From Chiloscyllium plagiosum (lineage: Eukaryota), in assembly GCF_004010195.1 (NCBI RefSeq), contig NC_057757.1, positions 5,370,430-5,434,429 of the forward strand: a DNA stretch of 64,000 nucleotides. Direction: 5' to 3'. Each line of letters opens with the position of its first letter. Position 1 is the first letter of the stretch. This document shows, piece after piece, positions 809 through 45,024 of the stretch. Under the pieces are notes generated by a model, which did not search any database, was not told where the DNA came from, and saw nothing but the letters and a program-made list of their open reading frames with translations. Position numbers and translations under genes: made by a program.

Positions 809-936
809 AAAACGTGGCATCGTGACCTTCCTGTCTGGTAAGGATGCAAGCCAAGCACTGAAGTACAACGGTGAAGAGTTGCTCGGCCGGGCCCTGCGGA
901 TACGCCGGCCCCTGCAGATCCTGAGACCGGTAGCAA
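809..936 (+). CDS. Nucleolin-like gene, exon encoding an RRM C-terminal half (nucleolin RRM1-like); gene begins upstream of the window
   Basis: Pyrimidine tract + ttag acceptor, A|gtaagt donor, phase 2-1. (R)KRGIVTFLSGKDASQALKYNGEELLGRALRIRRP resembles nucleolin RKFGYVDFESAEDLEKALELTGLKVFGNEIKLEKP. Confidence 0.85.
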
Positions 937-1030: not shown

Positions 1031-1114
1031 TTGTCAAGGGAAGGAAACGAAAGCTTAAGGATGCTGACGGGGAATCCTTGATTCCGGCAAAGAAGAAGAA
1101 TGTTCGGAAAGCAA
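1031..1114 (+). CDS. Nucleolin-like gene, Lys-rich mini-exon 1 (84 nt, bipartite NLS-like)
   Basis: ttttcaaag acceptor, A|gtacgt donor, phase 1-1; VKGRKRKLKDADGESLIPAKKKNVRKA. Confidence 0.8.
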
Positions 1115-1517
1115 GTACGTGGCATCATCACAGCAGCGTTCCAGAACTGTCGTCGAATGTGCCGGTAGATTTGGTGGTGGGGGTGGGGGGGTGCAGGGTG
1201 CAGAGCAGCCAGCTACCTCAATCTCAGGGTCCTTTAAAGCTGTGGCTCAGTAGCTGACTAATCTTTGAACTGCAGAGTTGTGGGTTTGGGTCCCAGCTCG
1301 TGGACCTGAACACACAACCTGGGACAGCATTCCCACCGTGGGATGCGTGCTGCTGAGGTGCCACCTTTCAGACTGAACATTGGCAGCTAAGTTGGAGACC
1401 CCATGACATGACAGCATTTGTCTCTGAACCGATATCTCGATATAGCCGTGGGATCTCGCAGTATGTGAGTCGGCTGCTGGGTTTTAATTAGAACATTTCA
1501 AAGATTCACTCAGTCTA

Positions 1518-2130
1518 GTCTATTGTATTAGCTGCTGACAATGTGGTCTCCTCTATACTGAGGAAACGAAGGGTAGGCTGGGTGACAACTTCACAGAACA
1601 CCTACGTTTTGCCCGCAAAAAGGACTCCGAGCCTCCAGCTGCCTACCACTTCAACACATAGCCCTGTGTTCCCTGGCCAACATTTCTGTCTCCAGCTCGC
1701 TGCAGTGCTCAAGTGAAGTTCAGTGCAAGCTGGAAGAACAGCACCTCGTTTTCCGCTCAGGAACTCTGCAGGCTTCTGGACTCAATATCGAGTTCAACAC
1801 CTTTTAGGGTTTGAGCTGTCCCATGGCCTTACCCCAACCCCACACACCAGGCCTTATTATCACAGGGTCTGCTATTATGACTGTTAGCTGCTAACAGTCC
1901 CCATTATTAGCTATTCACTTTCCTAGCCTGATCATCATCCACTCCTTTGTCTGTCCAACTGTTCTCTCACGTTTTGGGCTCTATCTCCATCTATTGTTTA
2001 CCCACCGCCACCACCACCCTGTCATCAGTTCTGAGATAGGGTCACTTGACCCATAATGTTACTTCTGATTTCTCTCCACAGATGCTGCCAGACCTGCTGA
2101 GCTTTTCCAGTGATTTGTGTTCTTGGTTCA
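1518..2130 (+). mobile_element. Decayed Penelope-like element 3' end (GIY-YIG endonuclease remnant + pseudo-LTR tail)
   Basis: Translates to VYCISC*QCGLLYTEETKGRLGDNFTEHL...YHFN* and KLEEQHLVFRSGTLQASGLNIEFN, followed by the tail (gatgctgccagacctgctgagcttttccag) shared with the palindromic repeats. Confidence 0.8.
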
Positions 2131-2398
2131 AAAATACGACACTGGCTGAAAACCACTTTGTAACTTAGACTTTGAAAGCCGCTGTAAAAATCATTATAAT
2201 TGTCAGGCCAGGGCTACAGGGCAGTGGCAGAAGGGTGGGATTAATTGAGTTGCAGGTGCAGAGAACTGCTATAGATGTGAGGGGGCTGAGTGGCCTCCTC
2301 CTGTGCTATAACTTTTCTGTGATTCTGCAAGTCTTTTTGTACTTTTCCCAACTCTGTTCCCGTTGTTACTTGGCTCTTTACTTTTTGTTTTCCAAAAG

Positions 2399-2470
2399 CC
2401 ACATTGACTAAGAAAAACAAGAAGGAATCAGAGTTACTGATTAAAAGAAGGAAGAAAAAACAAGAACAAA
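2399..2470 (+). CDS. Nucleolin-like gene, Lys-rich mini-exon 2 (72 nt)
   Basis: Pyrimidine tract + aaaag acceptor, A|gtatgt donor, phase 1-1; TLTKKNKKESELLIKRRKKKQEQ. Confidence 0.75.
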
Positions 2471-3073
2471 GTATGTACACATCATCTGTTCCTGAAATGA
2501 ATCTGTACTCTTCTTTCCCTCTTTCTACCGAATTTACTGCTCCCCAGCAAACACCCAGAATGCACTCTGGTTCTAGCTCAGAAAATTGCTGACGGTTGTC
2601 AGTGTATCTTGTGCTACTGGCCCATGCACACCAAGAAGACAATCAAACTCTTGTCAAACTGGCTGAGCCTTCAGTGCTTAGAAGGAAGCCATTCAGCCCA
2701 TCATGCCTACTCGTGCTTTGTCAATAGAGTGTGTAAATCTGCATGTTCTAGTTGTGATTTAAGAACAGCGTATGCTATTTGGGCACCAGAGGGTATTCTG
2801 GAGTAATTCTGGTAGTGCCCCTTCCTCTGCACCAGGTTCAAGTCCTACCTGTCCTGGAGGTGTGTCATTACTTGTCCGAACAGATTAGGTTAAAAGTCTA
2901 TAACAACCCAGTTCCGCCTGGGAGAGTCTGGACTGTGGATGGGAAATGTGGGCAGCACCTATGCTGTAGGATAAACTAACTGGCCAGGTCTTGTTTCACC
3001 CTTTAACCGATAGACTGCTAATCCAGAACCCAGGCTAACGCTAATAGGTTGGGTATAGGTTTGATTCTCACCA

Positions 3074-3520
3074 TGGCAGCACCAGGGACCCGGATTCGAT
3101 TCCAGCCTCGGGTGACTGTCTGTGTGCAGTTTGCACGTTCTCCCCATGTCTGCGTGGGTTTCCTCCGGGTGCTCTGGTTTCCTCCCACAGACCAAAGATA
3201 TGCAGGTTAGGTGAATTGGCCATGCTAAATTGTCCCATAGTGTTCAGCGATGTGTAGGTTGGGTGCATTTGTCAGGGATAATGTAGGGTAACAGGATAAG
3301 AGAATGGTTCTAGGTGGGTTATTCTTCGGAGGGTCGGTGTGGACTTGTTAGGCTGAAGGGCCTGTTTTCACACTGTAGGGATCCTATGATTCTATGAAAG
3401 CAGTTCAATTCCCTTAGTGTTAGGTGCATTAGTCAGGGAAATGGGTCTGGGTGGATTACTGTTTGGAGGTGTGGACTTGTTGGGCCAAATAGCCTGTTTC
3501 CACACTGTAGGGAATCTAAT
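3074..3520 (+). mobile_element. HE1-type SINE plus an extra 3' fragment
   Basis: Typical core and a duplicated ctgtttccacactgtaggga tail. Confidence 0.75.
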
Positions 3521-4024
3521 TTAGTCGACTAATCTTATTCTCCTTTATACACAGTTTTAAAGTCAGGCAGACATTCTATCTGACATTCTTGGGTTAGGGT
3601 TAGAAGTCTAAACAGCTGCTGGTGCCCTAACCTTTGCCCAGTTTGCGCTAGTTGCTCTTAAATCACAGCTAAAGCACACTGATATATGCAGTGAATTGAC
3701 ACAGCTGTTGTACCACAAGTAGGCATGATGGGCCAAATGGCCGAGAGTGAAAAGTTCACAGTTTGTTGTTCTACAAACAGCCCTGCACTAGATTCAAATC
3801 CCAGTTTGACTTGAGTTTGCTGGTTGGAGTGGATGTGCAGTACGGTTGGTCTCTGTGTCTCTGAGCTAGTGTTTTAGCTGGCCTTTGGACTCTTGAGGAC
3901 TGACCAGTAATATCCCTACTGCTGGCTTGATTGGTGGGTGTGTATGGGAGGAGCAGGCAAAGTCAGGGTCTTGTATAGGACCAAGGAATTTATTATGGCT
4001 GCTACTTGTATGTTTGTTCATCAG

Positions 4025-4093
4025 AAGCTGAGAAAATAGAGGAGGAGGAAGCATCGACACGTCAGAAGATGAAGAAAAGACATTGGGAGATAA
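4025..4093 (+). CDS. Nucleolin-like gene, mini-exon 3 (69 nt)
   Basis: ttcatcag acceptor (CAG/AAG NAGNAG), A|gtatgt donor, phase 1-1; AEKIEEEEASTRQKMKKRHWEI. Confidence 0.72.
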
Positions 4094-4704
4094 GTATGTA
4101 AATAGATACTTGCTGATATCTTGCAGATGTGGTCTCTCAGTGGTTAGCACCGCTGCCTCTCAGTGCCAGTTCCCTCAGGCAACTGTCCGTGTGGAGTTTG
4201 CACATTTGCCTCGTATGGGTTTCCTCCCACAGTCCAAAGATGTGCAGGTTAGGGTGGGTTGGCCATGCCAAATTGTGCAGAGCGTCCAGGCATGTGCAGG
4301 CTAGGTGAATTAGCCATGGAAATGCAGGGTTAGAGAGGTGAGGTAGGGGCTAGATCTGGATGGGATGCTCTTTAGAGGGTCTATGTGGACTTGATGGGCC
4401 AAATGGCCTGTTTCCACACTGAGGGGATTTTGTGTTTCTATCATCATAGGAGAAGACGTAGGCCATTCAGCCTGTTGAATCTATTTTGCTACTAGTGATA
4501 CAATGACTGATCTCATAATCTTCAACTCCACTTCTCTGCTTTTTCTCCAACCACTCTTGGTATCCTTACTGAGTTTAAATATACTTAATGATCCAGCCTT
4601 GACAGCCCACTGTGATAATGTAATCCCCAGACTGACTACCATCAGAGAAGAAATTCCTCCTCATTACTGTCCCAACTGGAAGACCCTATTCTGAGATGAG
4701 CACT

Positions 4705-6840
4705 TTGGAGAGATTGACCATAGTTCAGTTACATTTAGTTGGAAAGGGATAGGTACATGCCACAGGTTAAGAGTTATTGATGGAGCAAGGGCAATTATAA
4801 TGTGATTAGGCAAGAATTACGATGCATAGAATGGGGTAGCAAAATGCAGGGGATGCGGACAATGGAAATGTGGAGCTGGTTTAAGGAATAGATATTGCGT
4901 GTCCTTGATAGGTATATCCCTGTCAGGCAGGAAGTGATAAGGTAAGGGAACCGTGGTTTACTACAGAAATTGCATCTCTTGTTAAGCGGAAGAAAAAGGC
5001 TTATGTGTTGATGAGACAGGATGGTTCAGATGAGGTGATGGAGAGTTACAAATCAGCTAGGAAGGATTTAAAGAGAGAGTTAAGAAGAGCAAAGGGAGGA
5101 CACGAGCAGTCGTTAGCAGGTAGAATAAAGGAGAACCCTAAAGCTTTCTATAGATATGTGAGGAATAAAAGGATGACTAGGGTAGGAATAGGGCCAGTCA
5201 AAGACAGAAGTGGGAAGTTGTGTGTGGACCCTGTGGAGATCAGAGAGGTGCTAAATGAACATTTCTCATTGGTTTTCACTCAGGAAAAGGAGAATATTGT
5301 AGACGAGACGATTGAGATACGAGATATTCGACTAGAAAGGATCGAGGTTAGTTACGAATAGGTGTTATCAATTCTAGGATTGAAAGTAGACAAGTCCCCT
5401 GCGCCAGATGGGATTTATCAGAGGATTCTCTGGGAAGCTAGAGTTGGAGCCTTTGCTTTTGATATTTGAGTCATCATTGTCTACAGGTTTAGTACCAGAG
5501 GACTGGAGGAATGCAAATGTTGTTCAAGAAGGGCAGTAGAGATGACCCAGGTAATTATAGACCACTGAGCCTTACTTCTGTTGTAGGAAAGGATTATAAG
5601 AGAGAGGATTTATAATAATCTAGCAAGCAACAATTTGATTTCGGATATCAACGTGGATTCGTCATGTCTCACAAACCTTATTGAGTTTTTTGAGAAGGTG
5701 ACCAAGCATGTAGATGAGGGTAGGGCAGTTGATGTGGTGTACCTGGACTTTAGTAAAGCCTTTGATAAGGTAAGCTGTTGGAGAAAATGCAGAGACCTGG
5801 GATTGCGGGTGATTTACCAGTTTGGATTGGAAACTAGCTTTCTGAAAGAAGGCAGCGAGTGGTGGTTGATGGAAAATATTCAGCCTGGAGTCTGGTTACT
5901 AATGGTGTGCCACAAGGATCTGGTTGGGACCACTGCTGTTTGTCATCTTTAAAAATGACTTAGACGCAGGCAAAGGTGGATGGATTAGTAAATTTGCAGA
6001 TGACACTAAAGTCGGTGGAGTAGTGGACAGTTTGGAAGAGTGTTACAGGTTGCAGGTGGACTTGGATAAACTGCAGAATTGGGCTGAGAGGTGGCAAATG
6101 GAGTTCAATGCAGCTAAATGTCAGGTGGTTCACTTTGGGAAGAATAACAGGAAGGCAGAGTACTGGGTCATTGGAAAAATTCTTGGTAGTGTGGACATGC
6201 AGAGGGATCTTGGAGTCCATGTACATAGATCCCTGAAAGTTGCCACCCAGGTTGATAGTGCTGTTAAGAAGGCATACGGTGTGTTAGGTTTCATTGGTAG
6301 AGGGATTGAGTTCCGGAGCCGCAATATCTTCTGCAACCATATAAAACGCTAGTTCTGGTCACCATATTTCGGGAAGGATATGGAAGCATTGGAAAAGGTG
6401 CAGAGGAGATTTACCAGGATGCTGTCTGGTCTGGAGGGAAGGTCTTATGAGGAAAGGCTGAGAGACTTGGGTCTGTTCTCATTGGAAAGAAGAAGGCTAA
6501 GAGGAGATTTGATAGAGACATACAAGATGATCAGAGGATTAGATAGGGTAGACAGTGAAAGTCTTTTTCCTAGGATGATGATGTCAGCTTGTACAAGGGG
6601 GCGTAACTACAAATTGAGGGGTGGTAGATTTAAGACAGATGTCGGAGACAGGTTCTTTATTCAGAGAGTGGTAAGGGCGTACCTGCCAATAGTTAACTCA
6701 GCCACATTAGGGAGATTTAAACAATCCTTGGATAAGCACATGGATGATGGTGGGGTAGTATAGGGGGATGAGCTGAGAATAGTTCACAGTTGGCGCAACA
6801 TTGAGGGCCGAAGGGCCCGTTTTGCACTGTTTTGTTCTAC
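4705..6840 (+). mobile_element. CR1-clade LINE (HER1-like), degenerate ORF2 and 3' UTR
   Basis: ORF fragments with VYLDFSKAFDKV, KFADDTKVGG and LEKVQRRFTRM...GLFSLERRRLRGDLIETYK; frameshifted. Confidence 0.92.
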
Positions 6841-7578
6841 GTGCCACACAAATCCCAAGCAACAATCATCACTGATAAGAGACAGTCTAACCACTCCCTC
6901 TTGACATGCAGTGGTGTTACTGTCAAAGCCCCCACTATCAACATCCTGGGGGATTATCATTGACTGGAAACTCAACTGGACTCACCACATAAACACTGGC
7001 TACAAGAGCAAATCAAAGGCTAGGAATACTGTGACAAGAAACTCCCCTCCTGACACCCTAAAGTCTGTCCATCATCTACAAGGCACAAGTCAGGGGTGTG
7101 ATGGAATACTCCTCAGTTGCCTGGATGAGTGCAGCTGAAACGACACTCAAGAAGCTCGCGCCATTCAGGACAAAGCAGTCCACTTGATTGGCACCACATT
7201 CACAAACACCCACTTCCCTCAGTCGCAGCACTGTGTGCTATCTACAAGTTGCACTGCAGCAATTCACCAAAGATGCTCAGACAGCCCTTCCTGACCCTCA
7301 GCCATATCCATCTAGAAAGACAAGAGCTAGCAGATACGTGGAAACACCAGCCCCTGCAAGTTCCACTCCAAGCAAATCTCCATTCTGGCTTGGAAATATG
7401 TCAGTGTGTATGTTGCTGTCGCTGGGTCAAAATGCTAGAATTTCCTTCCTAATGGCATTGTGGGACTGCAGCAGTTCATGAAGGCAGCTTGTCCCCCACC
7501 TTCTCGAGGGCAACTAGGGACGGAATAAATGCTGGGCCCAGCCAGTGACACCCACAATCCTGCAAATGAATAAAAAAC
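6841..7578 (+). mobile_element. 3' fragment of a second CR1/L2-group LINE family
   Basis: Homologous to 12765-13285; ends in aataaatgctgggcccagcc...gaataaaaaa, a tail shared with a SINE family in this window. Confidence 0.65.
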
Positions 7579-7828
7579 ATTGTCCTGTAGAACACCCCTC
7601 AGTCCTCTTCAAAATAGCAACTGAAGGATCTTTTATGTCTACCCAAAGCCAGCCTCAATTTTAGCCAACAGCCAGCATTTTCAAAACCGCAGCATTCTGT
7701 TAACACTGCCACCAGAGCTGTCAGCCTGAATCTTTGTGCTCAGGTCTCCAGCATGGGAATGGAGCTCTTCAGATGAGCATTATGACTTGTCCATATGGTT
7801 ATTTGAATAGAAAGGATTACAGAAAAAA

Positions 7829-8128
7829 GGGTGGCACGGTGGGCTCATTGGTTAGCACTGCTGCCTCACAGCGCCAGAACCCAGGTTCGATTCCAGCCTC
7901 GGGTGATTGTCTGTATAGAGTTTGCACATTTTCCCCGTGTCTGCGTGGGTTTCCTCCGGGTGCTCCGGTTTCCTCCCACAATCCAAAAGAAGTGCAGGTC
8001 AGGTGAAATGGCCATGCTAAATTGCCCCATAGTCAGAGGGAAACGGGTCTGGGTGGCTTACTCTTCGGAGGGTTGGTGTGGACCTGTCGGGCCGAAGGGC
8101 CTGTTTCCACACTGTAGGGAATCTAATC
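7829..8128 (+). mobile_element. HE1-type SINE
   Basis: Complete head, core and tail motifs. Confidence 0.8.
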
Positions 8129-8186
8129 AGAAAAGGCAGGAAAATGGCACTGACACTATCTTTTGAACTTGTTTCTTCCTGGGAAG

Positions 8187-8264
8187 CTGCTTCAACTGAG
8201 CAGCATGGAGAAGACGCCACAGAAACCTCGCTTCGGCAGCTGAAGAAACGGAGACGCGGCAAGT
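8187..8264 (+). CDS. Nucleolin-like gene, mini-exon 4 (78 nt)
   Basis: tttcttcctgggaag acceptor, T|gtaagt donor, phase 1-1; ASTEQHGEDATETSLRQLKKRRRGK. Confidence 0.72.
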
Positions 8265-8755
8265 GTAAGTGGATAAAACTACTTGTGATTTGAGGTTGTC
8301 TCTGGCTGAGCCTGTTCAGGCACAGCACTGGCTACCTTGCCAAGCATGTCTGCAGACTCAGTCAGTCAATTCATTGCCCCTGACGAGTCATAGAGATATA
8401 CAGCATGGAAACAGACCCTTTGGTCCAACTTGTCCATGCAGAACAGACACGCTAAATTAATCTAGTCCCATTTATGTGTAATCACTCATCCCTGGAGACA
8501 CTCTGCTGAATCTCCTCTCCAAAGTCTTTGTTACGATGTTTTGCCTCACATCATTTCTGGCTGTTTTCCACATCCACTTAAAGCTGCCTTAACAGTAGGG
8601 TAGCCCATATTGTACACATGTAGCTTTGACCAGGGGCGTACAACACCAAAGGAGGCCATTGAGCCCATCAAGTATGCATGGGTGAGCCACTTCATGGTTT
8701 CTGCTATGCCAGATTCCTGGTATCTACATTTTTGAAAATTTGTCTGGAGGAAACT

Positions 8756-9092
8756 GGGTGGCACAGTGGCTCAGTGGTTAGCACTGCTGCCTCACAGCGC
8801 CAGAGACCCGGGTTCGATTCCACCCTCAGGTGGCTGTCTTCAAGTGCCCATCCATTCTCCCCGCGGGTGCTCCAGTTTTCTCCCACAGTCCAAAGATGTG
8901 CAGGTTGGGTTGGATTGGCTATGCTAACGTGTCCTAAAGTGTCCAGGGATGTGTAGGCCAGGTGGATTACCCATGGGAAATGCAGGGTTGCAGGGATAGG
9001 GTAGGGGGTTGGGCATGGGTGGTATGCTCTTTAGATGGTCAGTGGTGACTGAATGGGCCAAATGGCCTGCTCCCACACTGTCGGGTTTCTAT
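8756..9092 (+). mobile_element. HE1-type SINE
   Basis: ggtggcacagtggctcagtggttagcactgctgcctcacagc head. Confidence 0.8.
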
Positions 9093-9331
9093 GGAAGTTA
9101 CAGGCTGAACCCTTGATGGATTTGACAGGGGCATGAACTGAAGAGGCCAGGTGGGAAACACTTTTTTTTCAGGAGATCCTTACCAGGTGCAGAGCGGGAC
9201 AGGAAAAAGCCAGGACTGGTGGCAAACGTTGGGGTGGAAAGGCGGGGAAGAGGCAGTAGGATTGTGGGACTGGAGTGCACCTTACCGAGCGCAGCTCTTG
9301 TCAGAAAACTCACTGCTTTGTTCTCAAAAAG

Positions 9332-9412
9332 CAGCTTCAAGTGAGGGACGCAAAGGCGATGATCTGGAGGACAAGCTATTTGAGAAGGAAAAGAAGCAAA
9401 GTACAGAAAAAC
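9332..9412 (+). CDS. Nucleolin-like gene, mini-exon 5 (81 nt)
   Basis: ttctcaaaaag acceptor (alternative CAG 3 nt downstream), C|gtaagt donor, phase 1-1; ASSEGRKGDDLEDKLFEKEKKQSTEK. Confidence 0.75.
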
Positions 9413-9664
9413 GTAAGTGAATAGTTGTTTCCTGCTCACTCACTTTATTGCCTATCGGTTTGTTCAACCATATATTTATTCACGCACCACCCTGACTTGG
9501 AACTACATCGGCTGCGCCCTCACTGTGTCGCTGGGTCAAAAGCCTGGAATTCCCTCCCACGGCATTGTGGGTATCCCCACACCACACCACACCACACAGA
9601 CTTCAGCCATTCAATACGGCAATGCTCCAGAAGAATTTTAAGGCTGATTATGAGATGTGCAAAA

Positions 9665-9957
9665 CGGTGGCACAGTGGTTAGCACTGCTGCCTCACAGCA
9701 CCGGAGACCCGGGTTCAATTCTGGCCTCAGGCGACTGACTGTGTGGAGTTTGCACGTTCTCCCCGTGTCTGCGTGGTTTTCCTCCGGGTGCTCCGGTTTC
9801 CTCCCACAGTCCAAAGATGTGCAGGTTAGGTGAATTGGCCGTGCTAAATTGCCCCATAGTGTTAGGTAAGGGGTAAATGTATGGGTGGGTTGCGCTTAGG
9901 GGGTCGGTGTGGACTTGTTGGGCCGAAGGGCCTGTTTCCACACTGTAATGTAATCTA
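9665..9957 (+). mobile_element. HE1-type SINE (well preserved)
   Basis: Head, core and ctgtttccacactgtaatgtaatct tail. Confidence 0.82.
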
Positions 9958-11218
9958 AAAACGCACAATGCCCATATGCTGTGAACGAATCACAAAACAA
10001 GATAAATAGGAAGTCTATCTTACCCAGGCCAGCGTTTATTGCTCATCACTAATTGCCTTTGAGATGATAACTTCAACTGCTGAAGTCCGTGGGGTATAGA
10101 TACACTCACCGTGTTATTAGGGAGGCAGTTCTAGGAGTTTCTTTTATTCATTTGCTGGCCAGCATTTATTACCCATCCCTTGATGTCCTTGAAGACCCTT
10201 TGTAGCGATTAGTACAACTGAATGGCTTGCTAGGCCATTTCAGAGGGCAATTGAGAGTCTATTGCTGTCAGCCCAGAGTCACAAATGCCAGCTCCCTTTC
10301 CTGAAGGACATCAGTGAACCAGATGGGCTTTTCCAACAACGTCAACAGTCTCATGATCATCAGTAGATTATTTTCCTATTAAATTCAAATTCTACCATCT
10401 GCTGAGGTGGGATTCGAACCTAGAACATTCGCTGAGTTTCTGGATTTATAATCTTGTGATAATGCCACTAGGCCATCCCTATTTGACCCAGCAACAGTAA
10501 GGGAAGAGCTGATGTAGTCAGGATGGTGGCAGCTTGGAGTGGTCCTGTCAGTCCCACTCCATCCATGCTATCCCCACAGACCTGCAAGTTCTTCATCTTC
10601 AAGTGCCCATCCATTTTCCTTTTGAAATCATTCATCATCTCTGCCTGCACCTGGATATTAGTCCCAGCGGTTACCACCTGCTGCATAGGGAGAAAATAAA
10701 AACCAAGCTTCTTGCAAATAAGAGCAGAAGTAGGGCCATTCGGCCCTTCAAGCCAATCATAATGATATTGGTTGTTCATCCAGTTCAGTTCCCTGTTCCC
10801 GCTTTCGCCCCATATCCTTTAGCCCTAACAACCCTATCTAACTCTTTCAAAGCCTCAGCTGTGTTCTGTGACAGAGAATTCCACTCCTGGTTCTTGGCTC
10901 CCCTGGTCGCCAGGAGCAAATTCCAAATCAATGTCACTATCTCCTTTTCCCCTTTGATTTCCTTTTCGAAGTACTGGGCTTACAACTGAGACACAGTACT
11001 CTGAGGTTTGGCCAGTAGGTTTTGTACTCTATTCCCTTCGTAAAGGCTGGAATCTCAAGTGCTTGCATTTTTGATGACCTGATCAACTTGCCTAGTCTGA
11101 TTTGGGAAAGGGAGAATTACAGGAGAGCAATTTAACAGGATCCCAATTGTCAGAATGTGGCCTCTTACATTGCTCAGTCACACCACTGCCATCAAACCCT
11201 TCATTTCTTCCCAAAAAG

Positions 11219-11308
11219 CTGCTTTTAGTGAAAACGCAGATGGGAACGCTGCTTCTCTGCCTCAGAAGAAGAAGAAGAAAAAGAAAAGGAAAAAAGCTGA
11301 GGAGAAAG
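11219..11308 (+). CDS. Nucleolin-like gene, mini-exon 6 (90 nt, poly-Lys)
   Basis: tttcttcccaaaaag acceptor, G|gtaagg donor, phase 1-1; AFSENADGNAASLPQKKKKKKKRKKAEEK. Confidence 0.78.
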
Positions 11309-11387
11309 GTAAGGAAGTTCTTTTCAAGACGTGAACTTGTGTCTACTTCAACCTTTTCACTGACTTCCATTGCTGGTTTGAACAGGA

Positions 11388-11683
11388 GCGGCTCAGTGGT
11401 TAGCACTGCTGCCTCACAGCACCGGGGACCCGGCTTCGGCTCCACCCTTGGGCAACTGTCTGTGTGGAGTCCGCACATTCTCCCTGTGTCTCCTTGGGTT
11501 ACTTCCGGGTGCTCTGGTTTCCTCCCACAGTCCACAAATGTGCAGGTTGGGTGTATTGGCCATGGGAAAGGCAGAGTTTCTGGGATAGGGTTGGGGGGCT
11601 CTGTGTGGATGGAATGCTCTTTAGAGGGTCGGTCTGGACTTAATGGTCCGAATGGCCTGCTTCCACACTGTAGGGATACTATG
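11388..11683 (+). mobile_element. HE1-type SINE
   Basis: Same motifs as the other copies. Confidence 0.78.
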
Positions 11684-12764
11684 AAGTGCTTGTGATATTG
11701 CTGGGAATCAGTTGTTGGCGCACTTCACACACTCACACTCACAGCACTCGTGCACACACGCGCGCACACACACTCTCTCACACAATACATACATACACAC
11801 ACACATAAACAGAAGTTGCAGCATGGTGGTCAACTTTGGATTAGATTTTATTCTCACATGTACTCGAGTATAGGAATACAGGAGTACAATGAAAAGTGTA
11901 CAAAATCGCCATTCTCTGACGCCCGATTGGTTACACACTTGACTACAAAACTGGAATCTTAAAAAAAAAAGCCCAGCAGAAATAAACAAAACAAAGCCAA
12001 AATGACTGAAAAACATCCAGATATTAAAGTCAGGGGACAATTTCAAAGTTTGCAGATGAAAGAAAACGTGTACCAAACAAAACCAGAAACTGCTGGAGAA
12101 ACCAAACAGGCCCGGCAGTATCCATGGAAACAGAAACCGGGTTCAGTGTCTCAAACCTGCTCAAACTGTTTGGATTAACAACACAGTGATCCTGAGTTTG
12201 AACCTGACTACAGTAAACTAATGTCAATTTGTCAAGTTATTTTTGGAAACCCATCTCATTCATGGCAACATTTCCCAGTGCAACGCAGTCTGACCTACAT
12301 GTCCCTGTATTACCGTAGAGAACTTTGGTGGGGGAGGGAAGAAAAGCTGTCTTTTCATGTTAACAGTATTACCCAAACAAGATTTAAGAAAAAGGAGTGG
12401 AATGAAAGGATTTGGATATTGAGAAAGAGTGGGTAAATCGAGTTGAGATACAGAAGCGGGGATGTTCACCAATGGTTACAACTAGGAATGGTTACGTTTC
12501 TGATGAAGAGCTTTTGCCGGAAACATCGATTTTTCTTGCTCCTCGATGCTGCCTGACCTGCTGTGCTTTTCCAGCACACTCTAATCTTGACTCTGATCTC
12601 CAGCATCAGGAGTACTCACTTCGGCCTAATGGTTACACCATGTCAGTACCATTTGCGGCTTCTCGGACACTTGAAGCTGTCCATGTTCAAGTTCAAAAAA
12701 ATATCTGAAAATGAGATATATATTTTAAAAAACCACATTTAACAAGATGACATCCAAATTTGGG

Positions 12765-13285
12765 CTGACAAGTGCCACAGAAATGTCAGGCAATGACCAT
12801 CACCAATAAGAGGCAATCTAATCACTACCCCTTGATATTAAGTTGTGTTATCATCACTGAATTCCCCCACCTCACCACTATCAATGTCCTAGGGGTTATC
12901 ATTGTTCAGAAGCTCAACTCGACTCTCCACATAAACACAGCAGTTACAGGAGCAAGTCAGAGGCTGGGAATACTGTGGAAAGTAACTCACCACCTGACTC
13001 CCCAACGCCTGTCCACTAGGCACAAGGCAGGACTCTGATGGAATACTCCCCGCTTGCCTGGATGGGTGCAGCTCCAACACCGTCCAGGCCAGTGGCGCCA
13101 CATCCACAGGCATCCACTCCCTCCACCACTGACGCTCAGTAGCAGCAGTGTGTACCATCTACAAGATGCACTGCAGGAGTTCACCAAAGATCCTCAGGCA
13201 GTACCTGCCAAACCCACAACCACTTCCATCTAGAAGGACAAGGGCAGCGGATACATGGGATCACCAGCCCCTTCAAGCCCTCCCA
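12765..13285 (+). mobile_element. Fragment of the second CR1/L2-group LINE family
   Basis: Homologous to 6841-7578. Confidence 0.6.
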
Positions 13286-13398
13286 CAACCTTGATGTATC
13301 GCTACTGTGTCGCAGCCTCCCCTGAAACACCACGAGCGATTCCCTGGTACATTTACAAAGAAAGGCTTGCCACAAAACATTTCTTTGGTCTCCTTCAG

Positions 13399-13482
13399 TT
13401 TTCTTAAGCGACAAGAGAGCAGAGGAGAAGGAGAAGGTTGCCTCTGTGCTGCAAAAGAAAAAGAAAAAAAGGAAGAAGAAAC
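13399..13482 (+). CDS. Nucleolin-like gene, mini-exon 7 (84 nt, poly-Lys)
   Basis: tctccttcag acceptor, C|gtaagt donor, phase 1-1; FLSDKRAEEKEKVASVLQKKKKKRKKK. Confidence 0.8.
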
Positions 13483-13691
13483 GTAAGTAGATTAAACAAT
13501 TTCTAACAACAAAGTCTGAAGTAGTGCTCAGTTCTGTCTCTTTGATGCCATGATCTGTCCCATTAACAAGGAGTCTGACAAATGCAGGGCTCCTATCCTG
13601 TCCCACTGCATTTCTCTGCCAGGCCTACATTGCTCAGTCTGGTTGTCTGATAATGCCAACTGTTACTACGTTCTTATTTTCTTCCTCGAAG

Positions 13692-13772
13692 TGACTTTAA
13701 GCAAGAAAACAGCAGTGGAGGAGCACGCCACCAGCGCAAAGACGAAGAAACGTAAAAAGACGCAAGAGAAAA
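13692..13772 (+). CDS. Nucleolin-like gene, mini-exon 8 (81 nt)
   Basis: ttttcttcctcgaag acceptor, A|gtacgt donor, phase 1-1; TLSKKTAVEEHATSAKTKKRKKTQEK. Confidence 0.75.
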
Positions 13773-14470: not shown

Positions 14471-15681
14471 AGGATAACAGGCTTGGAAGGAGCAATTCTT
14501 CCCATTAGGGGTTTGAGTTTTTTTTTCACGGAAGCGTAAGAGGTTGAGGGGTGACTTTTATGGAGGTTTATAAAATCATGAGGGACATAGGTAAGGTGAA
14601 TAACAAGGGTTGTTCCCCTAGGTCGGGGAGTTCAAAATCAGCGGGCATGTTTTTAAGGGAGGGGAAAAGGTTTTAAAGAAGATGTGAAGGGTAACGTTTT
14701 TACACAGAGGGTGGTCAGTGTGTGGAATGAACTGTCCGAGGAAGTGGTGGATGCGGGTACAGTTATAACATTTAAAAGACATTTTGATAAGTAAATGAAT
14801 AGGAAAGGTTTGGAGGGATATGGGCCAGGAGCAGGGACTGGTTTCGTTTTGGAACGTGGTCAACATGGACTGACTGGACCAAAGGGTTTGTTTCAATATG
14901 GTGTGACTCTGTAATGGATGGTATCAGGGTGAAGGGACAAAATTTAAAGTTTCAGACTGGAGATTTAGGGATGCTATGGAGCATGTGATAAGAACTCGGG
15001 ACGTCGCGAGGGTGCTGGAAGCAGAGACTAATTCCAAAGGGAAATTGGATGGCCACTCGGCGGGGGGGGGGGGAATAAATTTTCAGGGCTACAGGTATCG
15101 AGCAGGAGAGAGGCACTGACTAGATTGCTCCGCATGGAGCGGGCATGGACTCAATGGGCTGAATTGTCACTGCCTCTACTGTAAATGACTCCATGCTCCA
15201 GCATGGAAGGAGCTCATTCAGCCCCTTGGGTGATCTCTTTGAAAGAGTTCACGAACAGCTCCCACTTCCCTTTGCCCTTGTTCTTTCCCCATCGCTTCAT
15301 AAATTTTTCCCCTTAAAGCATTTATCCACTTTCCCTTTGAAAGTTAATGCAGAATAATTGAAAGCGAGCACTTCCCAGGTCACAAAAACCCGCAATGTCA
15401 GAAAATCATTTTTCATGTTGTCTCTGGTTTTGTTTGCAAAACCACGCTGTACAAGTCTTCTCAAAACTCACCGCACTGTATAAACAAAATGTGCCTGAGA
15501 TGAAATATCGTCTTGTTTTATACTCCTAAGGGCCATTAGCAGGGATCTAGGGCTTGTGTTTTCACCTCTCTTGTGTTGTCCAACCCTGACCTTTCCTTAC
15601 AATCTGTACATCCCTGAAACACCCTAGTACCAGTGTCTACTTCATCAGGAGTTATGAGTACAAGTTGCACAGTTTCACTGG

Positions 15682-16482
15682 TGCTACCTCACGTTTGCAA
15701 TGATTTGATCCCTGTGGTTCTGGCCCTACTTGGAGCTCCTCTATGCTCCTTCCCTCCCCAGGTGAAACAACTAGCTCAGTGTCCATTGGTGGGGGTGGGG
15801 GTGTATGTGTTGGTGTGCCATCCAGTAAGACCAAACCCAGATGACACTGAAATATTTTGAGACCCCCCCACCCCACCAAACCAAAATCCCTTTGGTGTTT
15901 GCAAAGCCCCAGTTTGTGACCATGTTTAGAATGATAAAGACCTCCATTGGGTTAGGAAAGAAACCAACTTTCTTCGGGGAATCGACAGCGTGAGGTCCTT
16001 CTACTCATCACGTTTCTTGTTCTCGCAGCTTCCTGGTGTCTCTATATCGAGAAGTTGAGGTCCCAGAATTCACCTTGTGAGCTGATGCTACCTCACGTTT
16101 GCAATGATTTGATCCCTGTGGTTCTGGCCCTACTTGGAGCTCCTCTATGCTCCTTCCCTCCCCAGGTGAAACAACTGGCTCAGTGTCCATTGGTGGGGGT
16201 GTATGTGTTGGTGTGCCATCCAGTAAGACCAAACCCAGATGACACTCAAATATTTTGAGACCCCCCACCCCACCAAACCAAAATCCCTTTGTTGTTTGCA
16301 AAGCCCCAGTTTGTGACCATGTTTAGAATGATAAAGACCTTCATTGGGTTAGGAAAGAAACCAACTTTCTTCGGGGAATCGACAGCATGAGGTCCTTCTA
16401 CTCATCACGTTTCTTGTTCTCGCAGCTTCCTGGTGTCTCTACATCGAGAAGTTGAGGTCCCAGAATTCACCTTGTGAGCTGA
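15682..16482. repeat. Tandem direct duplication of ~400 bp (15682-16085, 16086-16482)
   Basis: Two near-identical adjacent copies differing by small indels and substitutions. Confidence 0.92.
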
Positions 16483-16699
16483 AGGCAGCCATTGGCGATT
16501 TTCTAAGTGAGAGGTCGGTCCCATACAAAGAGATCCAGCTGGATCCTGACAGGTATGGGCTTGAGTTTCTCTCGCGGCAGTCAGTTTTCTATCCAACTGG
16601 GACATGATGTCAAATCCAGGGAAGGAGATGCTTTTTCTTTCCCAACTCTAGGCACGTAGTGTCAGCGGCAAAAACTCCCAGACTACATAAATCGTGTTC

Positions 16700-17140
16700 G
16701 AGAATAAAGCTCCATCTAGAACTTTGCCCATCAAACACTCCCAAGACAGGGACAGCACGGGATTAGATGCAGAGTAAAGTTCTTTCTACACAGTCCCCAT
16801 CAGACACTCCCAAGACAGTGACAGCACAGGGTTAGATACAGAGTAAATCTTCCTGTACACTGTCCCTCATCAAACACTCCCAGGGCAGGGACAGCACAGG
16901 GTTCGATAGAGTAAAGCTCTCTCTACACAGTCCCCATCAAACATTCCCAGCGCAGGTATAGCAAGGGGTTCGATATGGAGTAAAGCACCCTCTACATTGT
17001 CTCTAGCATACATTCCCAGGACAAATATAGCGCACAGTTAGATACCGACTAAAGCTTTCTCTATACTGTCTCCACCAAACACTCCCAGGACAGGTATAAC
17101 ACACAGTTAGGTACAGAGTAAGTAGCTTCTAAACACTTGC
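16700..17140 (+). repeat. ~67-70 bp minisatellite array
   Basis: Unit caaacactcccaggacag...ggttagatacagagtaaagct...tgtccccat, about 6 copies. Confidence 0.88.
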
Positions 17141-18429
17141 AGGGCAAATAAAGTGAAGCTGCTTTCCACTGCAAAATCAGATCATCCCAAATCAGGTCCA
17201 GGGTGGAAAGAGATGCAGTTAATTTCCCCAACCGCCTGCCCACAATACAACAATAAGCCCCCAATGGCTTTTCTGAATCTTATTGTAAACTTGCATTTGC
17301 ACACTACAGAAGTAACTTTCTAACATCCCAACCCTTCACATACGCTGTGGAAAATTGTTATGAACAGCAGATATTGTCATGTCATTGTGTGCACTTAAAG
17401 ATCCCATAAATATCGGAGAGGGGGGCGGGGGGTGGAATGATGTTGCATAGTGTAGAGAAACATTGGTGCATTACCCAGGAGTAAAGGAGTCCAGCATCCA
17501 CCTGAACCAGTGGGACTGGTGGTTAGGACCTGGGGTTAATGTCTCATCTGACAGACGGCTATCTTCAATGCTGCAGAACTCCTTCACTACCCAGTCTGAA
17601 TTGTTGGATGGGGTCAGAACACAATATCCTCACCAGAAGCAAAACTGCTGCTAACACCCATCGTTTGGAAGCTTGCTTCAGGTGGGGTCACATGACTGAG
17701 GGGAGTTTAGCATTACGCCATAACTGTAGATTCATATATCAATGTCTACAAAATGAAAGGATGCAAATTTGCCAACCTTCCTCTGGAATTCTTCCTTGAT
17801 AGGTACCACCATCCAGTTCTGTCTCAATGTATTAAATAATTTTGCACCTTTTGCCTGTACATCAATTTGTAGAATCTGTACACCAGAATTTCATAGTTCA
17901 TCTGAGCAAGTTTAACGTGGTTTCTCTGTATTTCAGGCCCTTTAGAAAAGAAGCCAAATGCTTTGCCAGTGTTTTGAGCAATCTGTGTACTTGTTTAAAA
18001 GTTAGATTTATTTGATCAATTTGACCGATTTCTTGCTGGCTCACTTCCAGCTGCTCCGCCTGTGTTGAACTGAACCATGAGGGCGATCTGAATGAAGCTC
18101 TGCAGTTTGGCACGTGCAACATTCTCGGACAAGTAGCAAGATTAAGCAAGGTGGAGAAACTGGGAGCGCTGAATGGCAGTGAGTCAGTCTCTTTTTTTTT
18201 CAGCGCCTTCAGTTCACGATGCTCTGCTGAAGGAATTGTTTCCTGGCGTAGGAATCCCCTAAGGGGAATGAGCCTCCTGGTCATTGGCAAAGGGACCAGG
18301 CTTCATGCTGAGCCTGAACGATGCACGTTGCAAAGCTGAGTAGCAGGGGTCCTACAAAGGAGACCCCAGTCCCTTCCTTTACCAACACGCAAAGGCTGTC
18401 CAGCCAGAGAGTATGCCTTGTTTCTCGGG

Positions 18430-21353: not shown

Positions 21354-21471
21354 GAATTGACTCTAGGACACTTCGTGTGAAAACCCTTCCAAGTGACGTC
21401 TGTGCCAAGGACCTTAAGCGTTTGTTTGAGAAAGTTGCTGGTGTTTGGATATGTCAGGACGTCAACAAAAG
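21354..21471 (+). CDS. Nucleolin-like gene, RRM N-terminal half
   Basis: tttccttttag acceptor, AG|gtacgc donor, phase 1-2. IDSRTLRVKTLPSDVCAKDLKRLFEKVAGVWICQDVNKR resembles nucleolin RRM2 ERDARTLLAKNLPYKVTQDELKEVFE. Confidence 0.85.
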
Positions 21472-21978: not shown

Positions 21979-22094
21979 GTTTGGACTTGTCATGTTTGAG
22001 ACAGAGGAAGACACAGCTAACGCGCTAAATAATGGTGAAATAGAATGCAGAGGAAACCTGCTCCGACTGGACCGTGCATATCCAGTGAAACAAG
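21979..22094 (+). CDS. Nucleolin-like gene, RRM C-terminal half
   Basis: ttttctttgccag acceptor, G|gtatgt donor, phase 2-1; RNP1-like RFGLVMF then ETEEDTANALNNGEIECRGNLLRLDRAYPVKQ. Confidence 0.88.
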
Positions 22095-25057: not shown

Positions 25058-25400
25058 TCTGGGAGTGTTTAATGGGGCAGTGTAGAGGAAGCTTTGATTC
25101 CAGTTTAAAACATAACCCCATGCTGTCCCGGTCCTGGGAGTGTTTCATGGGGACAGGGCAGAGAGAGCTTTACTCTGTATCTAACCCCGTACTGCCTCTG
25201 TCCTGGCAGTGTTTGATGGGGGACAGAGCTTTACTCTGTATCTAACTCCATACTGCCTCTGTCCTGGGAGTATTGGATGGGGACAGTGTAGATGACATTT
25301 TACTCTGTCTCTAACCCCATGCTGTCCCGGTCTTAGGACTGTTTAATGGGGGAACAGTGCTGTGGAAGCTTTACTCTGTGCTGTCCCTGTTCTGGAAGTG
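25058..25400 (-). repeat. Same ~68-bp minisatellite in the opposite orientation
   Basis: gggagtgtttgatggggacag...ctttactctgtatctaacccc units. Confidence 0.85.
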
Positions 25401-25512: not shown

Positions 25513-25630
25513 AGAAAAGGAAAATTCTTATGATTAAAAACCTGCCTTACCCAATCAGTAAAAAGAATCTAAAATCTATACTTAATGATGCTGAGGATAT
25601 CCACCTGTCAAAAAGCAACCAGTCACAAGG
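25513..25630 (+). CDS. Nucleolin-like gene, RRM N-terminal half (RRM2-like)
   Basis: tttctgcag acceptor, GG|gtgagt donor, phase 1-2; EKRKILMIKNLPYPISKKNLKSILNDAEDIHLSKSNQSQG, with RNP2 IKNLPY. Confidence 0.88.
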
Positions 25631-30566: not shown

Positions 30567-30712
30567 AGTTGCCTACGTGGAATACAAGACCACGAAACAA
30601 GCCAAACTTGCTCTGAAGGACTTCCAAGGCAGAGGTATTCCAGGCCAGGCAGTTCGAGTGGCTTCGATAGAGGAAGAGCAGGAGAGCCCAGAGAGCCAGT
30701 CTGACTGGTCAG
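30567..30712 (+). CDS. Nucleolin-like gene, RRM C-terminal half (RRM2-like)
   Basis: ttgttgtag acceptor, G|gtatgt donor, phase 2-1. GVAYVEYKTTKQAKLALKDFQGRGIPGQAVRV...SDWS matches nucleolin GIAYIEFKTEADAEKTFEEKQGTEIDGRSISL...STWS. Confidence 0.9.
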
Positions 30713-32582: not shown

Positions 32583-32706
32583 ATTCCACCAGATCCACCA
32601 GATCCCTGTTTGTATGGCGCCTGTCCAAACGAACAACAGTCAAAATGTTGAAATCAACCTTCAAGGAGGCCGTGGGTGCCAGGATACCACGAAAAAAGGG
32701 ACGGCG
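32583..32706 (+). CDS. Nucleolin-like gene, last RRM N-terminal half (RRM4-like)
   Basis: ctctcctttcag acceptor, CG|gtgagc donor, phase 1-2. STRSLFVWRLSKRTTVKMLKSTFKEAVGARI resembles PSKTLFVKGLSEDTTEETLKESFDGSVRARI. Confidence 0.88.
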
Positions 32707-35191: not shown

Positions 35192-35309
35192 GTTTGCCTT
35201 TGTGGACTTTAAGACGGCGGAGGAAGCAACGAGGGCACGGGCGCAGTTCCAGAATATGGAGATAGATGGCCAGCAAATGAAGCTATACTTTGCCAACTCT
35301 GCACAGTGA
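35192..35309 (+). CDS. Nucleolin-like gene, last coding exon (RRM C-terminal half, TGA stop)
   Basis: gctgtag acceptor, phase 2. RFAFVDFKTAEEATRARAQFQNMEIDGQQMKLYFANSAQ* resembles nucleolin RRM4 GFGFVDFNSEEDAKAAKEAMEDGEIDGNKVTLDWA. Confidence 0.88.
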
Positions 35310-36020
35310 GGGGAAGAGGCCGGCGTGTGACCTGGTCACCGATGGTATGCAGCAGCCCAGAGTGGGGGGGGAGAGAGAGAGATGATGGAGTAGTGGTAAT
35401 GTTGCTGGGCCAGGAAGTTAGAGGTCTGGGCTAGTGCACTGGGTTCAAATCCCACCAGGGCATCTAGTAAAGTCAATCTTTTGACACAAACGAATCAGGA
35501 ATGTTAGAAGTACCATTGTCGGATTGAGCTGGTCTAGTTCTTTAGTAACAGAAATCTGCCCCTCATTACCCGTCTGACCTGCGCGTGATTCCATACCAGC
35601 AGCAATGGAGTTGACTGTGACTCTCTTGCTATCCTGAAGTGCTCTCACACACGGCTGGGCGTCTTTCCCGCCACCAAATCACCGTGACTTTTTTCATATT
35701 TTTAAAACCCGTCACCAGTACTGCGCCTGTCAGGAATGGGAAATACATGATGCCCAAACTCGCATTGAAAGAAAAACTAGAAGGACTGTGCAGCCGTGAA
35801 TTAAAATTGTGTTTTATTCTCACGTGCACAGGGTTACAGTGAAAAATGTCCAATGTTACCATTCCCGGTGCCATCTTAAGTACAAAGGTATCCAGGTACA
35901 AATTCTTAGGTACCAGGTAGAAAAATAAAGTTACAAGTTGTACATTACCATCTTTACAAAGTAGAAAGAAAAAAGAAATAAAGGCCCAAGTTCAAAATTA
36001 CAATTCTTCTTAAGTGCTTG

Positions 36021-36334
36021 ATTAGATAAGATGAGAATCCCTAACGTGTGGAAACAGGCCCTTCGGCCCAACCAGTCCACACCGACCCTCCGAAGAGTAA
36101 CCCACCCAGTCCATTTCCCTCTGACTAATGCACCTAACACTACGGGCAATTTAGCACGGCCAATTCACCCCAACCTGCACATCTTTGGACTGTGGGAGGA
36201 AACTGGGGCACCCGGAAGAAACTCACGCAGACGCTGAGAGAATGTGCAAACTCCACCCAGTCAGTCGCCCAAGGCTGGAATCGAACCTAGGTCCCTGGTG
36301 CTGTGAGGCTGCAGTACTAACCACTGAGCTACAG
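36021..36334 (-). mobile_element. HE1-type SINE
   Basis: Reverse-complement motifs. Confidence 0.8.
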
Positions 36335-44810: not shown

Positions 44811-45024
44811 ATGTCCAGTGAGACCTCTCCCCTTCTCAACTACCGGCTCTATAACGTGGCCGGCGGGTTCGCCGAGAGCTGCGGCGGGGCCCCGCAGGAA
44901 GACGAGGTCGCCGTCTCCAGCACCGCATCCCAGCCCGATGACTCCAGGAAGCTGTCCACTTTCTTCGGGGTGGTGGTCCCCACTGTGCTCTCCATGTTCA
45001 GCATCGTGATCTTCATGCGAGTGG
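44811..45024 (+). CDS. SLC12A9: Solute carrier family 12 member 9, first coding exon
   Basis: cacc-ATG context, upstream acceptor at 44766, G|gtaaat donor. MSSETSPLLNYRL...RKLSTFFGVVVPTVLSMFSIVIFMRVG matches SLC12A9 MASESSPLLAYRL...RKLSTFLGVVVPTVLSMFSIVVFLRIG. Confidence 0.95.

Follow-up and report, generated by a model that had tools for sequence, protein, structure and literature searches.

A divergent nucleolin paralogue of cartilaginous fishes with an array of lysine-block mini-exons between two RRM1 copies

The window analysed here, i.e. the whole stretch of 64,000 nt from Chiloscyllium plagiosum (GCF_004010195.1, NC_057757.1, 5,370,430-5,434,429, forward strand), contains exons of LOC122544342, which its domain sequences identify as a divergent nucleolin paralogue of cartilaginous fishes. 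Eight mini-exons, placed by domain comparison between two RRM1 copies and thus ahead of an RRM1, encode a predicted disordered tract with net charge +40, rich in K-blocks. Our preferred reading, held with about even confidence, is that these duplicated phase 1-1 exons form a mostly included, multivalent basic anchor for nuclear import and nucleolar retention.

Exon structure and RRM domains

The features of the window are as follows.
809..936, + strand: RRM1a second exon, phase 2-1; the first half of the domain lies upstream of the window; RRM1-type in 9/9 elasmobranchs
1031..1114, + strand: unit M1, 84 nt; its two basic clusters recall the bipartite NLS ahead of RRM1 in nucleolin; an alternative acceptor lies at 1010, 21 nt upstream
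2399..2470, + strand: unit M2, 72 nt K-block exon; absent from RefSeq isoform X5
4025..4093, + strand: unit M3, 69 nt, acidic then basic
8187..8264, + strand: unit M4, 78 nt; compared with whale shark and zebra shark, its start lies 5 codons further on, in the same frame
9332..9412, + strand: unit M5, 81 nt; 78-nt form through a tandem acceptor (isoform X2)
11219..11308, + strand: unit M6, 90 nt; the sole position never skipped in 54 carpet-shark models
13399..13482, + strand: unit M7, 84 nt; absent from RefSeq isoform X6
13692..13772, + strand: unit M8, 81 nt
16426..16552, + strand: RRM1b first exon, phase 1-2; overlooked in the sequence-only reading
18051..18178, + strand: RRM1b second exon, phase 2-1; likewise overlooked
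21354..21471, + strand: third RRM (RRM2 by position), first exon
21979..22094, + strand: third RRM, second exon
25513..25630, + strand: fourth RRM (RRM3 by position), first exon
30567..30712, + strand: fourth RRM, second exon
32583..32706, + strand: RRM4 first exon
35192..35344, + strand: RRM4 second exon; the domain is followed at once by the stop codon, without an RGG tail

The sequence-only reading had proposed eight mini-exons of 84, 72, 69, 78, 81, 90, 84 and 81 nt, all phase 1-1 and totalling 213 codons, and all eight were recovered: the array comprised 639 nt, and every unit was open, AG/GT flanked and phase 1-1. Splicing the 17 exons from 809 to the stop gave 586 aa, the exact suffix of RefSeq isoform X3 (P0012). 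A fixed-criteria scan of both strands returned five phase 1-1 matches, all among the eight units and none on the minus strand; in the other two phases it returned three plus-strand matches, all on M5 and M6. A six-frame search revealed no convincing further units in the introns; its top four matches were M7, M6, M3 and M8, and those outside the units were short A-run matches. In the AlphaFold model the array (residues 506-727) had no secondary structure, with pLDDT <50 except for a few residues.

Most units had been described with an acidic or polar first half and a basic end. The basic end held, the second half being more basic in 7/8 units (M1, with +4/+4, was the sole exception), and only 4/8 first halves were net acidic.

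The array had also been placed between RRM1 and RRM2, which is incorrect, as a further RRM on exons 16426-16552 and 18051-18178 had been missed. For the RRM on each side of the array, both halves matched nucleolin RRM1 best in 9/9 elasmobranchs, and both domains fell in the RRM1 clade of the tree (support 98 for the vertebrate RRM1 group). A transcript joining 936 directly to 21354, suggested as evidence against the array, was misposed because the RRM1b exons lie between these positions and an RRM would be removed too.

The protein had five RRM-type domains, seen as five folded RRMs in the AlphaFold model, and RRM families were the only Pfam families above cut-off. Each RRM of the shark gene was split over two exons. 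The exon plan of nucleolin likewise has RRMs over two exons each and a symmetric NLS exon ahead of RRM1. The RRM1b-RRM4 profile matched human nucleolin best in PDB (9cb5, E 3e-47; next non-nucleolin 9e-14), with the RRM1-RRM4 order shared. Fold search was not useful for family identification, giving generic multi-RRM matches with nucleolin at rank 24. Domain assignment was clear for RRM1, RRM1 and RRM4, while the two middle domains were RRM2/3-like and individually ambiguous. We rejected a chimeric third RRM (RRM2 first exon plus RRM1 second exon), because its second half was best as RRM1 in only 1/9.

The RNP motifs of shark RRM1a and RRM1b are degenerate, which differs from nucleolin. In C. 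plagiosum, none of the three RNP aromatics survives in RRM1a and only one in RRM1b; therefore RNA binding beside the array appears doubtful.

Gene family and duplication of the units

The array was found in sharks, rays and the chimaera Callorhinchus. The proposed comparison of copy number across species bore fruit: about 3-14 units were counted, a roughly fourfold range, with counts outside the window taken from protein models and not from genomic exons. In a tree of 33 chosen rows, where most non-shark group labels were guessed from resemblance, 10 chondrichthyan sequences formed one clade (100/100) with a long stem, whose attachment is not fixed by this tree without canonical shark NCL. The array diverged faster than the RRMs (39-86% vs 53-97%), and the N-terminus of 500-1100 aa was unrelated to nucleolin. 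We found the paralogue in no paper by literature search. Its annotated names are misleading (uncharacterized, titin homolog, trichohyalin-like, mst101(2)-like).

Besides the extra RRM1 and the K-block units, the shark copy differs from nucleolin in lacking the RGG tail and long N-terminal D/E tracts. RGG count was 0-1 in 16 orthologous proteins vs 10 in bird NCL, the longest D/E run 3-7 in the same number vs 24, and the neg-neg z -1.5 to 1.9 vs 22.1. Teleost nucleolin-like proteins (flounder P0071, halibut P0075, P0105) are also RGG-poor nucleolin copies with internal RRM duplications, and P0105 shares the RRM1-NLS-RRM1 order, but they are without the K-block array. Their orthology to the shark gene had no support in the tree; teleost copies grouped with loach nucleolin and not with the shark gene, so they probably represent a separate duplication.

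Serial exon duplication, as first suggested, is well supported by sequence comparison: the units share an exon-start motif and AAG acceptors, and recent identical copies exist in basking shark, sawshark and elephant shark. With a start-motif matrix trained on 62 units from other orders, window M2-M8 scored 18.8 at true starts vs -74.5±12.9 elsewhere (0/100000 draws). AAG acceptors occurred in 6/8 units vs 0/9 RRM exons (p=0.002). Pairs at least 85% identical numbered 9/91 in basking shark, 8/28 in sawshark and 3/3 in the second array of elephant shark, and some units of these relatives were 100% identical to each other. The units of C. plagiosum had mean identity of 30% with 0/28 pairs at or above 85%, and going by this low identity they are old. 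DNA-level similarity between window units exceeded z=4 only for M3/M8 and M6/M7, and blastn of the flanking introns found, beyond splice signals, nothing except interspersed repeats and short matches at the 3' ends of M5/M6/M7. Frame symmetry is simply inherited by copies of one symmetric exon.

The likeness of M1 to the nucleolin bipartite NLS was confirmed. Against a profile of pre-RRM1 peptides, 7/15 M1-type units reached p<=0.01 vs 1/105 other units, and M1 of the window scored 13.6 bits vs 4.1 for shuffled sequences (0/200 shuffles), a likeness in sequence only. The array, with this bipartite-NLS-like peptide as its first unit, thus lies ahead of RRM1b, at the place where nucleolin has its bipartite NLS. 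Descent of M2-M8 from M1 is only moderately supported: 7/12 M1 units gave p<0.05 and 3/12 p<=0.01, the window's M1 gave p=0.25, and the first unit of the elephant shark arrays was not M1-type. We suggest that duplication of an [NLS exon + RRM1] block preceded the holocephalan/elasmobranch split, that the symmetric NLS-type exon would then have been copied repeatedly as single exons and as three-exon blocks, and that in most copies the first basic cluster may have become an acidic/polar 'xLSEK' start, leaving acid-base dipoles.

These duplications could be neutral, with one NLS exon needed and extra copies, cheap in disorder, arising by unequal crossover and drifting into a spacer with redundant import signals. 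The fourfold copy-number range is matched with this, and parts of the family duplicate freely: the array-RRM1b-RRM2 block is present twice in elephant shark, a flounder protein has five RRM4 copies, and the N-termini hold other repeats. The available part of PMC3632108 also describes successive symmetric exons as commonly encoding disorder and resembling each other. However, the old copies, at 30% identity, remain open, spliced and K-blocked in all orthologues examined, their acid-then-base order has persisted through sequence divergence, and a 15-nt shift of the M4 acceptor between lineages keeps the frame. We regard purely neutral expansion as improbable.

Charge patterning and splicing of the array

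By z-scores that approximate the published method only (King et al. 2024, PMC11938373), the window array had pos-pos 6.9, pos-neg 7.1 and neg-neg 2.3, with E 0.13 vs D 0.04. With class limits of pos-pos and pos-neg z>=3, E>=D and neg-neg under 5x pos-pos, the array fits, on these approximate scores, the 'K-block + E-rich' nucleolar pattern in its predicted sequence. The pos-neg z was >=3 in 18/19 arrays and <3 in 3/3 N-terminal controls from these proteins, while pos-pos z was <3 in 6/19 arrays. As far as the available text of King et al. 2024 (PMC11938373) describes, proteins with high-scoring regions of this type were nucleolar, and NUCKS no longer co-condensed with nucleolin and pre-rRNA after K-block deletion.

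Net charge of the arrays ranged from +7 to +47. Such basic arrays, together with the missing RGG tail and D/E tracts, the decay of several RNP aromatics and the long stem branch, could also mean that the paralogue abandoned ribosome biogenesis and that its tract attaches to DNA or chromatin elsewhere than in the nucleolus (in germ cells or on the mitotic chromosome surface), in the manner of a histone H1 tail. We consider this distinctly unlikely, as RRM4 kept all three aromatics in 7/8 orthologues having RRM4, and the E-rich halves between the basic blocks point more to the nucleolar pattern than to a purely basic tail.

Under the preferred anchor reading, the K-blocks would bind importin-alpha, RNA and acidic scaffolds (canonical nucleolin, UBF, NPM1) and would stand in for the lost RGG tail and D/E tracts; it would thus be a K-block client, not a D/E scaffold, that the protein represents.

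The sequence-only reading further proposed tuning of the array by alternative splicing. In-frame skipping was borne out in RefSeq models of 6/8 species compared, and regulated tuning is possible from these models. Among carpet sharks 18/54 models skipped 1-3 units and 7/8 positions were skipped somewhere, and the array was absent from 0/63 models. Cells might thus set the number of K-block exons according to tissue or stage and in this way adjust nucleolar partitioning or sub-phase, which would be consistent with the span of net charge across models (whale shark +31 to +15; sawfish +31 to +12, 2 models seen) and with the non-consensus splice signals of the units, namely the AAG acceptors and a G before the donor in 1/8 units vs 6/8. 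But species differ in which units are skipped, the same models also leave out in-frame exons of the N-terminus, and a unit was skipped in 0/4 models seen in Narcine and 0/3 in Heptranchias. Patterning z-scores were hardly altered by skipping, and annotation over-represents in-frame skips because these escape decay. Such a regulated choice therefore seems to us rather unlikely; skipping probably shifts block number by degrees and is tolerated rather than needed.

Known systems and meaning of the array

Treacle (TCOF1) is a nucleolar protein, and the available part of PMC7957619 describes its central domain (exons 6A-16) as holding 11 repeated motifs, exon 6A being subject to alternative splicing; its condensates are stabilised by alternating charge blocks, as the accessible portion of PMC11996177 states. 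So far as these excerpts go, Treacle resembles the shark gene in carrying each charge-patterned repeat on its own exon, with alternative splicing of some. Our literature search found nothing on Treacle repeats mapped to 'individual exons'. Treacle is not homologous, it lacks RRMs, and its longer repeats are clusters of serine and glutamate that CK2 phosphorylates, whereas the shark units, also in comparison with Nopp140, are of 23-30 codons, E/K based, net basic and in an RRM protein. The IDRs of LYAR, NUCKS and PolR1F share blocky K/R, E-rich spacers, E above D and high pos-pos/pos-neg z, but in the shark the blocks are separate exons of variable copy number, and the parent of the shark protein belongs to the opposite (D/E-tract) class.

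A bolder and tentative idea, to which we give little credence, is that a nucleolin copy was turned inside out, from D/E-tract and RGG scaffold to an exon-digitised K-block array in which splicing of single blocks would act as a counter that determines partitioning strength and nucleolar layer. The span of about 3-14 blocks among species, and of 5-8 in one shark, would then be a natural allelic series of charge valence.

Exon-per-repeat charge arrays are already known from Treacle, and the shark array is another version. If skipping is noise, the gene still neatly illustrates a process already known, the duplication of symmetric exons within disordered regions. Nucleolar partitioning is presumed to depend on the number of charge blocks, a relation mostly probed with artificial designs. 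The shark gene offers a natural series in which the RRM core stays constant while the blocks, each on its own exon, vary through both evolution and splicing; the parent of its protein has the opposite charge class.

The exon array and its domain context

The sequence-only reading had proposed eight lysine-rich mini-exons (here units M1-M8, together the array) at 1031-13772 between RRM1 and RRM2. All eight were confirmed with the claimed sizes (84, 72, 69, 78, 81, 90, 84 and 81 nt), AG/GT ends and phase 1-1, and the spliced window exons gave 586 aa that match the C-terminal end of a RefSeq protein, isoform X3 of Chiloscyllium plagiosum LOC122544342, without a mismatch. A fixed scan for K/R-blocked candidate exons of 60-99 nt in phase 1-1 found five matches on the plus strand, every one within the eight units, and no candidate on the minus strand of the window. 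The eight-exon feature is not chance. At M4, the 15 nt before the exon (8172-8186) are open in frame and resemble the M4-starting residues of whale and zebra shark; the M4 acceptor is shifted by five codons between lineages.

The placement between RRM1 and RRM2 did not hold, and the feature is real and correctly measured with its context misplaced. In the RefSeq proteins one extra RRM, a copy of RRM1 (RRM1b), separates the array from the exon at 21354:

16426-16552, plus strand: RRM1b, first exon (RefSeq proteins)
18051-18178, plus strand: RRM1b, second exon (RefSeq proteins)

Half-domain profiles for the four nucleolin-family RRMs scored RRM1b and the domain ahead of the array (RRM1a) best as RRM1, in either half and in 9/9 elasmobranchs; the last domain was RRM4 in 7/7, and the two middle domains were RRM2/3-like. 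A tree of 141 domains, built on few columns, was concordant for RRM1 and RRM4, and in the AlphaFold model all five RRMs are folded and the array lacks structure. The domain order is RRM1a, array, RRM1b, RRM2, RRM3, RRM4, stop. The array precedes an RRM1, a position that in nucleolin and its relatives holds two basic clusters about 10 residues apart (17 peptides).

Several other structures were seen in the window. A 397-bp tandem duplication (15678-16482, 96% matches), genuine or an assembly artefact, repeats the acceptor of the first RRM1b exon together with its opening 53 nt and leaves a decoy acceptor at 16029, ahead of the true exon at 16426. Two introns carry 69-bp minisatellite arrays in opposite orientation (16701-17121 and 25113-25351). 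A candidate 3' UTR intron lies at 35345-37101, its donor 34 nt past the stop codon and its possible acceptor at 37102. Further downstream, also on the plus strand, 44811-45024 is the start of an SLC12-family transporter gene (best E 0.003), presumably resembling SLC12A9, which could anchor synteny.

A probable nucleolin paralogue of cartilaginous fishes

The RRM1b-RRM4 profile matched human nucleolin best (E 3e-47), and orthologues were found in carpet sharks, horn shark, lamniforms, catsharks, smooth-hound, sawshark, sevengill, four batoid genera and Callorhinchus. In a tree of nucleolin-family proteins (33 rows picked out of about 165 distinct matches), all ten cartilaginous-fish sequences tested formed one clade on a long stem, with teleost nucleolin-like proteins placed apart. 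No protein with such an array outside cartilaginous fishes was found among the 71 top matches mapped (profile search of 50%-identity representatives, best 150 listed). Sixteen sequences had an RGG count of 0-1 and D/E runs never longer than 7 residues. The gene is derived from nucleolin, and because the RGG tail and long D/E tracts, two defining nucleolin features, are missing, it is classed as a paralogue, distinct from nucleolin proper.

The C. plagiosum isoforms P0010 and P0001 use different N-termini, each about 500-620 aa long, on a common RRM and array core, and in other species both are combined within one long model. Five batoid models (P0068, P0225, P0224, P0069, P0030) end inside or before RRM4 and have an additional K-rich stretch after the fourth RRM. 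Fish nucleolin or nucleolin-like proteins (P0071, P0075, P0074, P0105, P0117) have RRM duplications of their own: five RRM4 copies in flounder (P0071), eight RRMs in loach, and RRM1-NLS-RRM1 in P0105.

Duplication and skipping of units

Serial exon duplication, as the same reading had claimed, is well supported by a common start motif, AAG acceptors (6/8 units vs 0/9 RRM exons) and near-identical copies in relatives. A matrix of the start motif, with units of other orders as its training set, found the true window exon starts (18.8 vs -74.5±12.9 elsewhere), with M3 and M4 negative when scored singly. In basking shark a block of three units is present in three copies, with identity reaching 100%, and sawshark and elephant shark have runs of near-identical units; the window units are older (mean identity 30%). 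M1 was also correctly likened to the nucleolin bipartite NLS, by the pre-RRM1 NLS profile (p<=0.01 in 7/15 M1-type units vs 1/105 other units). It matched the M2-M8 profile partially, in 7/12 at p<0.05, and the window's own M1 was not significant. The related species behind all these counts are not independent.

An iterated profile counted 14 units in basking shark, eight each in sevengill, bamboo shark and epaulette shark, five in Mustelus, two each in Scyliorhinus canicula and Narcine, and 3+3 in Callorhinchus. M1 escaped this profile in seven species, and with M1 added the range is about 3-14, counted on protein models in which isoform choice may matter. A neutral accordion, in which extra units drift, seems to us quite improbable. 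In Callorhinchus milii (P0222, P0076) the array-RRM1b-RRM2 block occurs twice with no domain at the RRM3 position, and isoform X11 drops one entire block in frame.

The duplication probably began with a block of the NLS exon plus RRM1, followed by copying of a symmetric exon over and over; we take nucleolin's own NLS exon to be symmetric in phase 1. Units so copied would therefore inherit their frame symmetry, which is not a sign that skipping was selected for. Transcript models, presumably built on RNA-seq introns, skip units in 2/11 of C. plagiosum (M2; M7), 3/8 of epaulette shark (M4; M7+M8), 8/17 of whale shark (M1; M3; M8; M2+3; M1+3; M1-3), 2/9 of zebra shark (M2; M5), 3/9 of C. punctatum (M4; M4+5; excluding a 67-aa fragment and one GenBank model) and 1/2 seen of sawfish, and in none of four Narcine and three sevengill models seen. 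These are computed models and carry no inclusion levels. M6 was retained in 54/54 carpet-shark models, none of 63 models across the eight species compared was without the array, and N-terminal in-frame exons are also skipped within these sets. A regulated splicing rheostat of unit number, the tuning first proposed, is unlikely.

The design itself is already known. Successive, mutually similar symmetric exons encoding disorder are a described trend (PMC3632108), and Treacle has 11 repeats across exons 6A-16, one alternatively spliced (PMC7957619), with charge blocks that stabilise condensates (PMC11996177). The gene and its array appear undescribed: open full texts gave no description under shark nucleolin-like gene, teleost nucleolin paralogue or six LOC identifiers, nor, among the top 20 matches listed, under cartilaginous-fish nucleolin duplicate, and supplements or subscription papers could list the gene.

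Charge pattern and predicted localisation

The array has a net charge of +40 over 215 aa and is blocky (pos-pos z 6.9, pos-neg z 7.1, E above D, by an approximation of the published method). With these approximated z-scores it has the pattern of basic lysine clusters (K-blocks) plus E-rich regions of King et al. 2024 (PMC11938373), who report such proteins in nucleoli, tending to the fibrillar centre and co-condensing with nucleolin and pre-rRNA by way of the K-blocks. A chromatin role outside the nucleolus for such a tract appears rather doubtful. In yeast NSR1, both basic stretches of the bipartite NLS are reported as required (PMC2119886). RNA binding would rest mainly with the C-terminal RRMs, because the three RNP aromatics are all retained in RRM4 and all missing from RRM1a. 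From its sequence, we give about an even chance that the array is a multivalent import and nucleolar-retention tract, a K-block anchor, which would substitute for the lost RGG tail in this paralogue.
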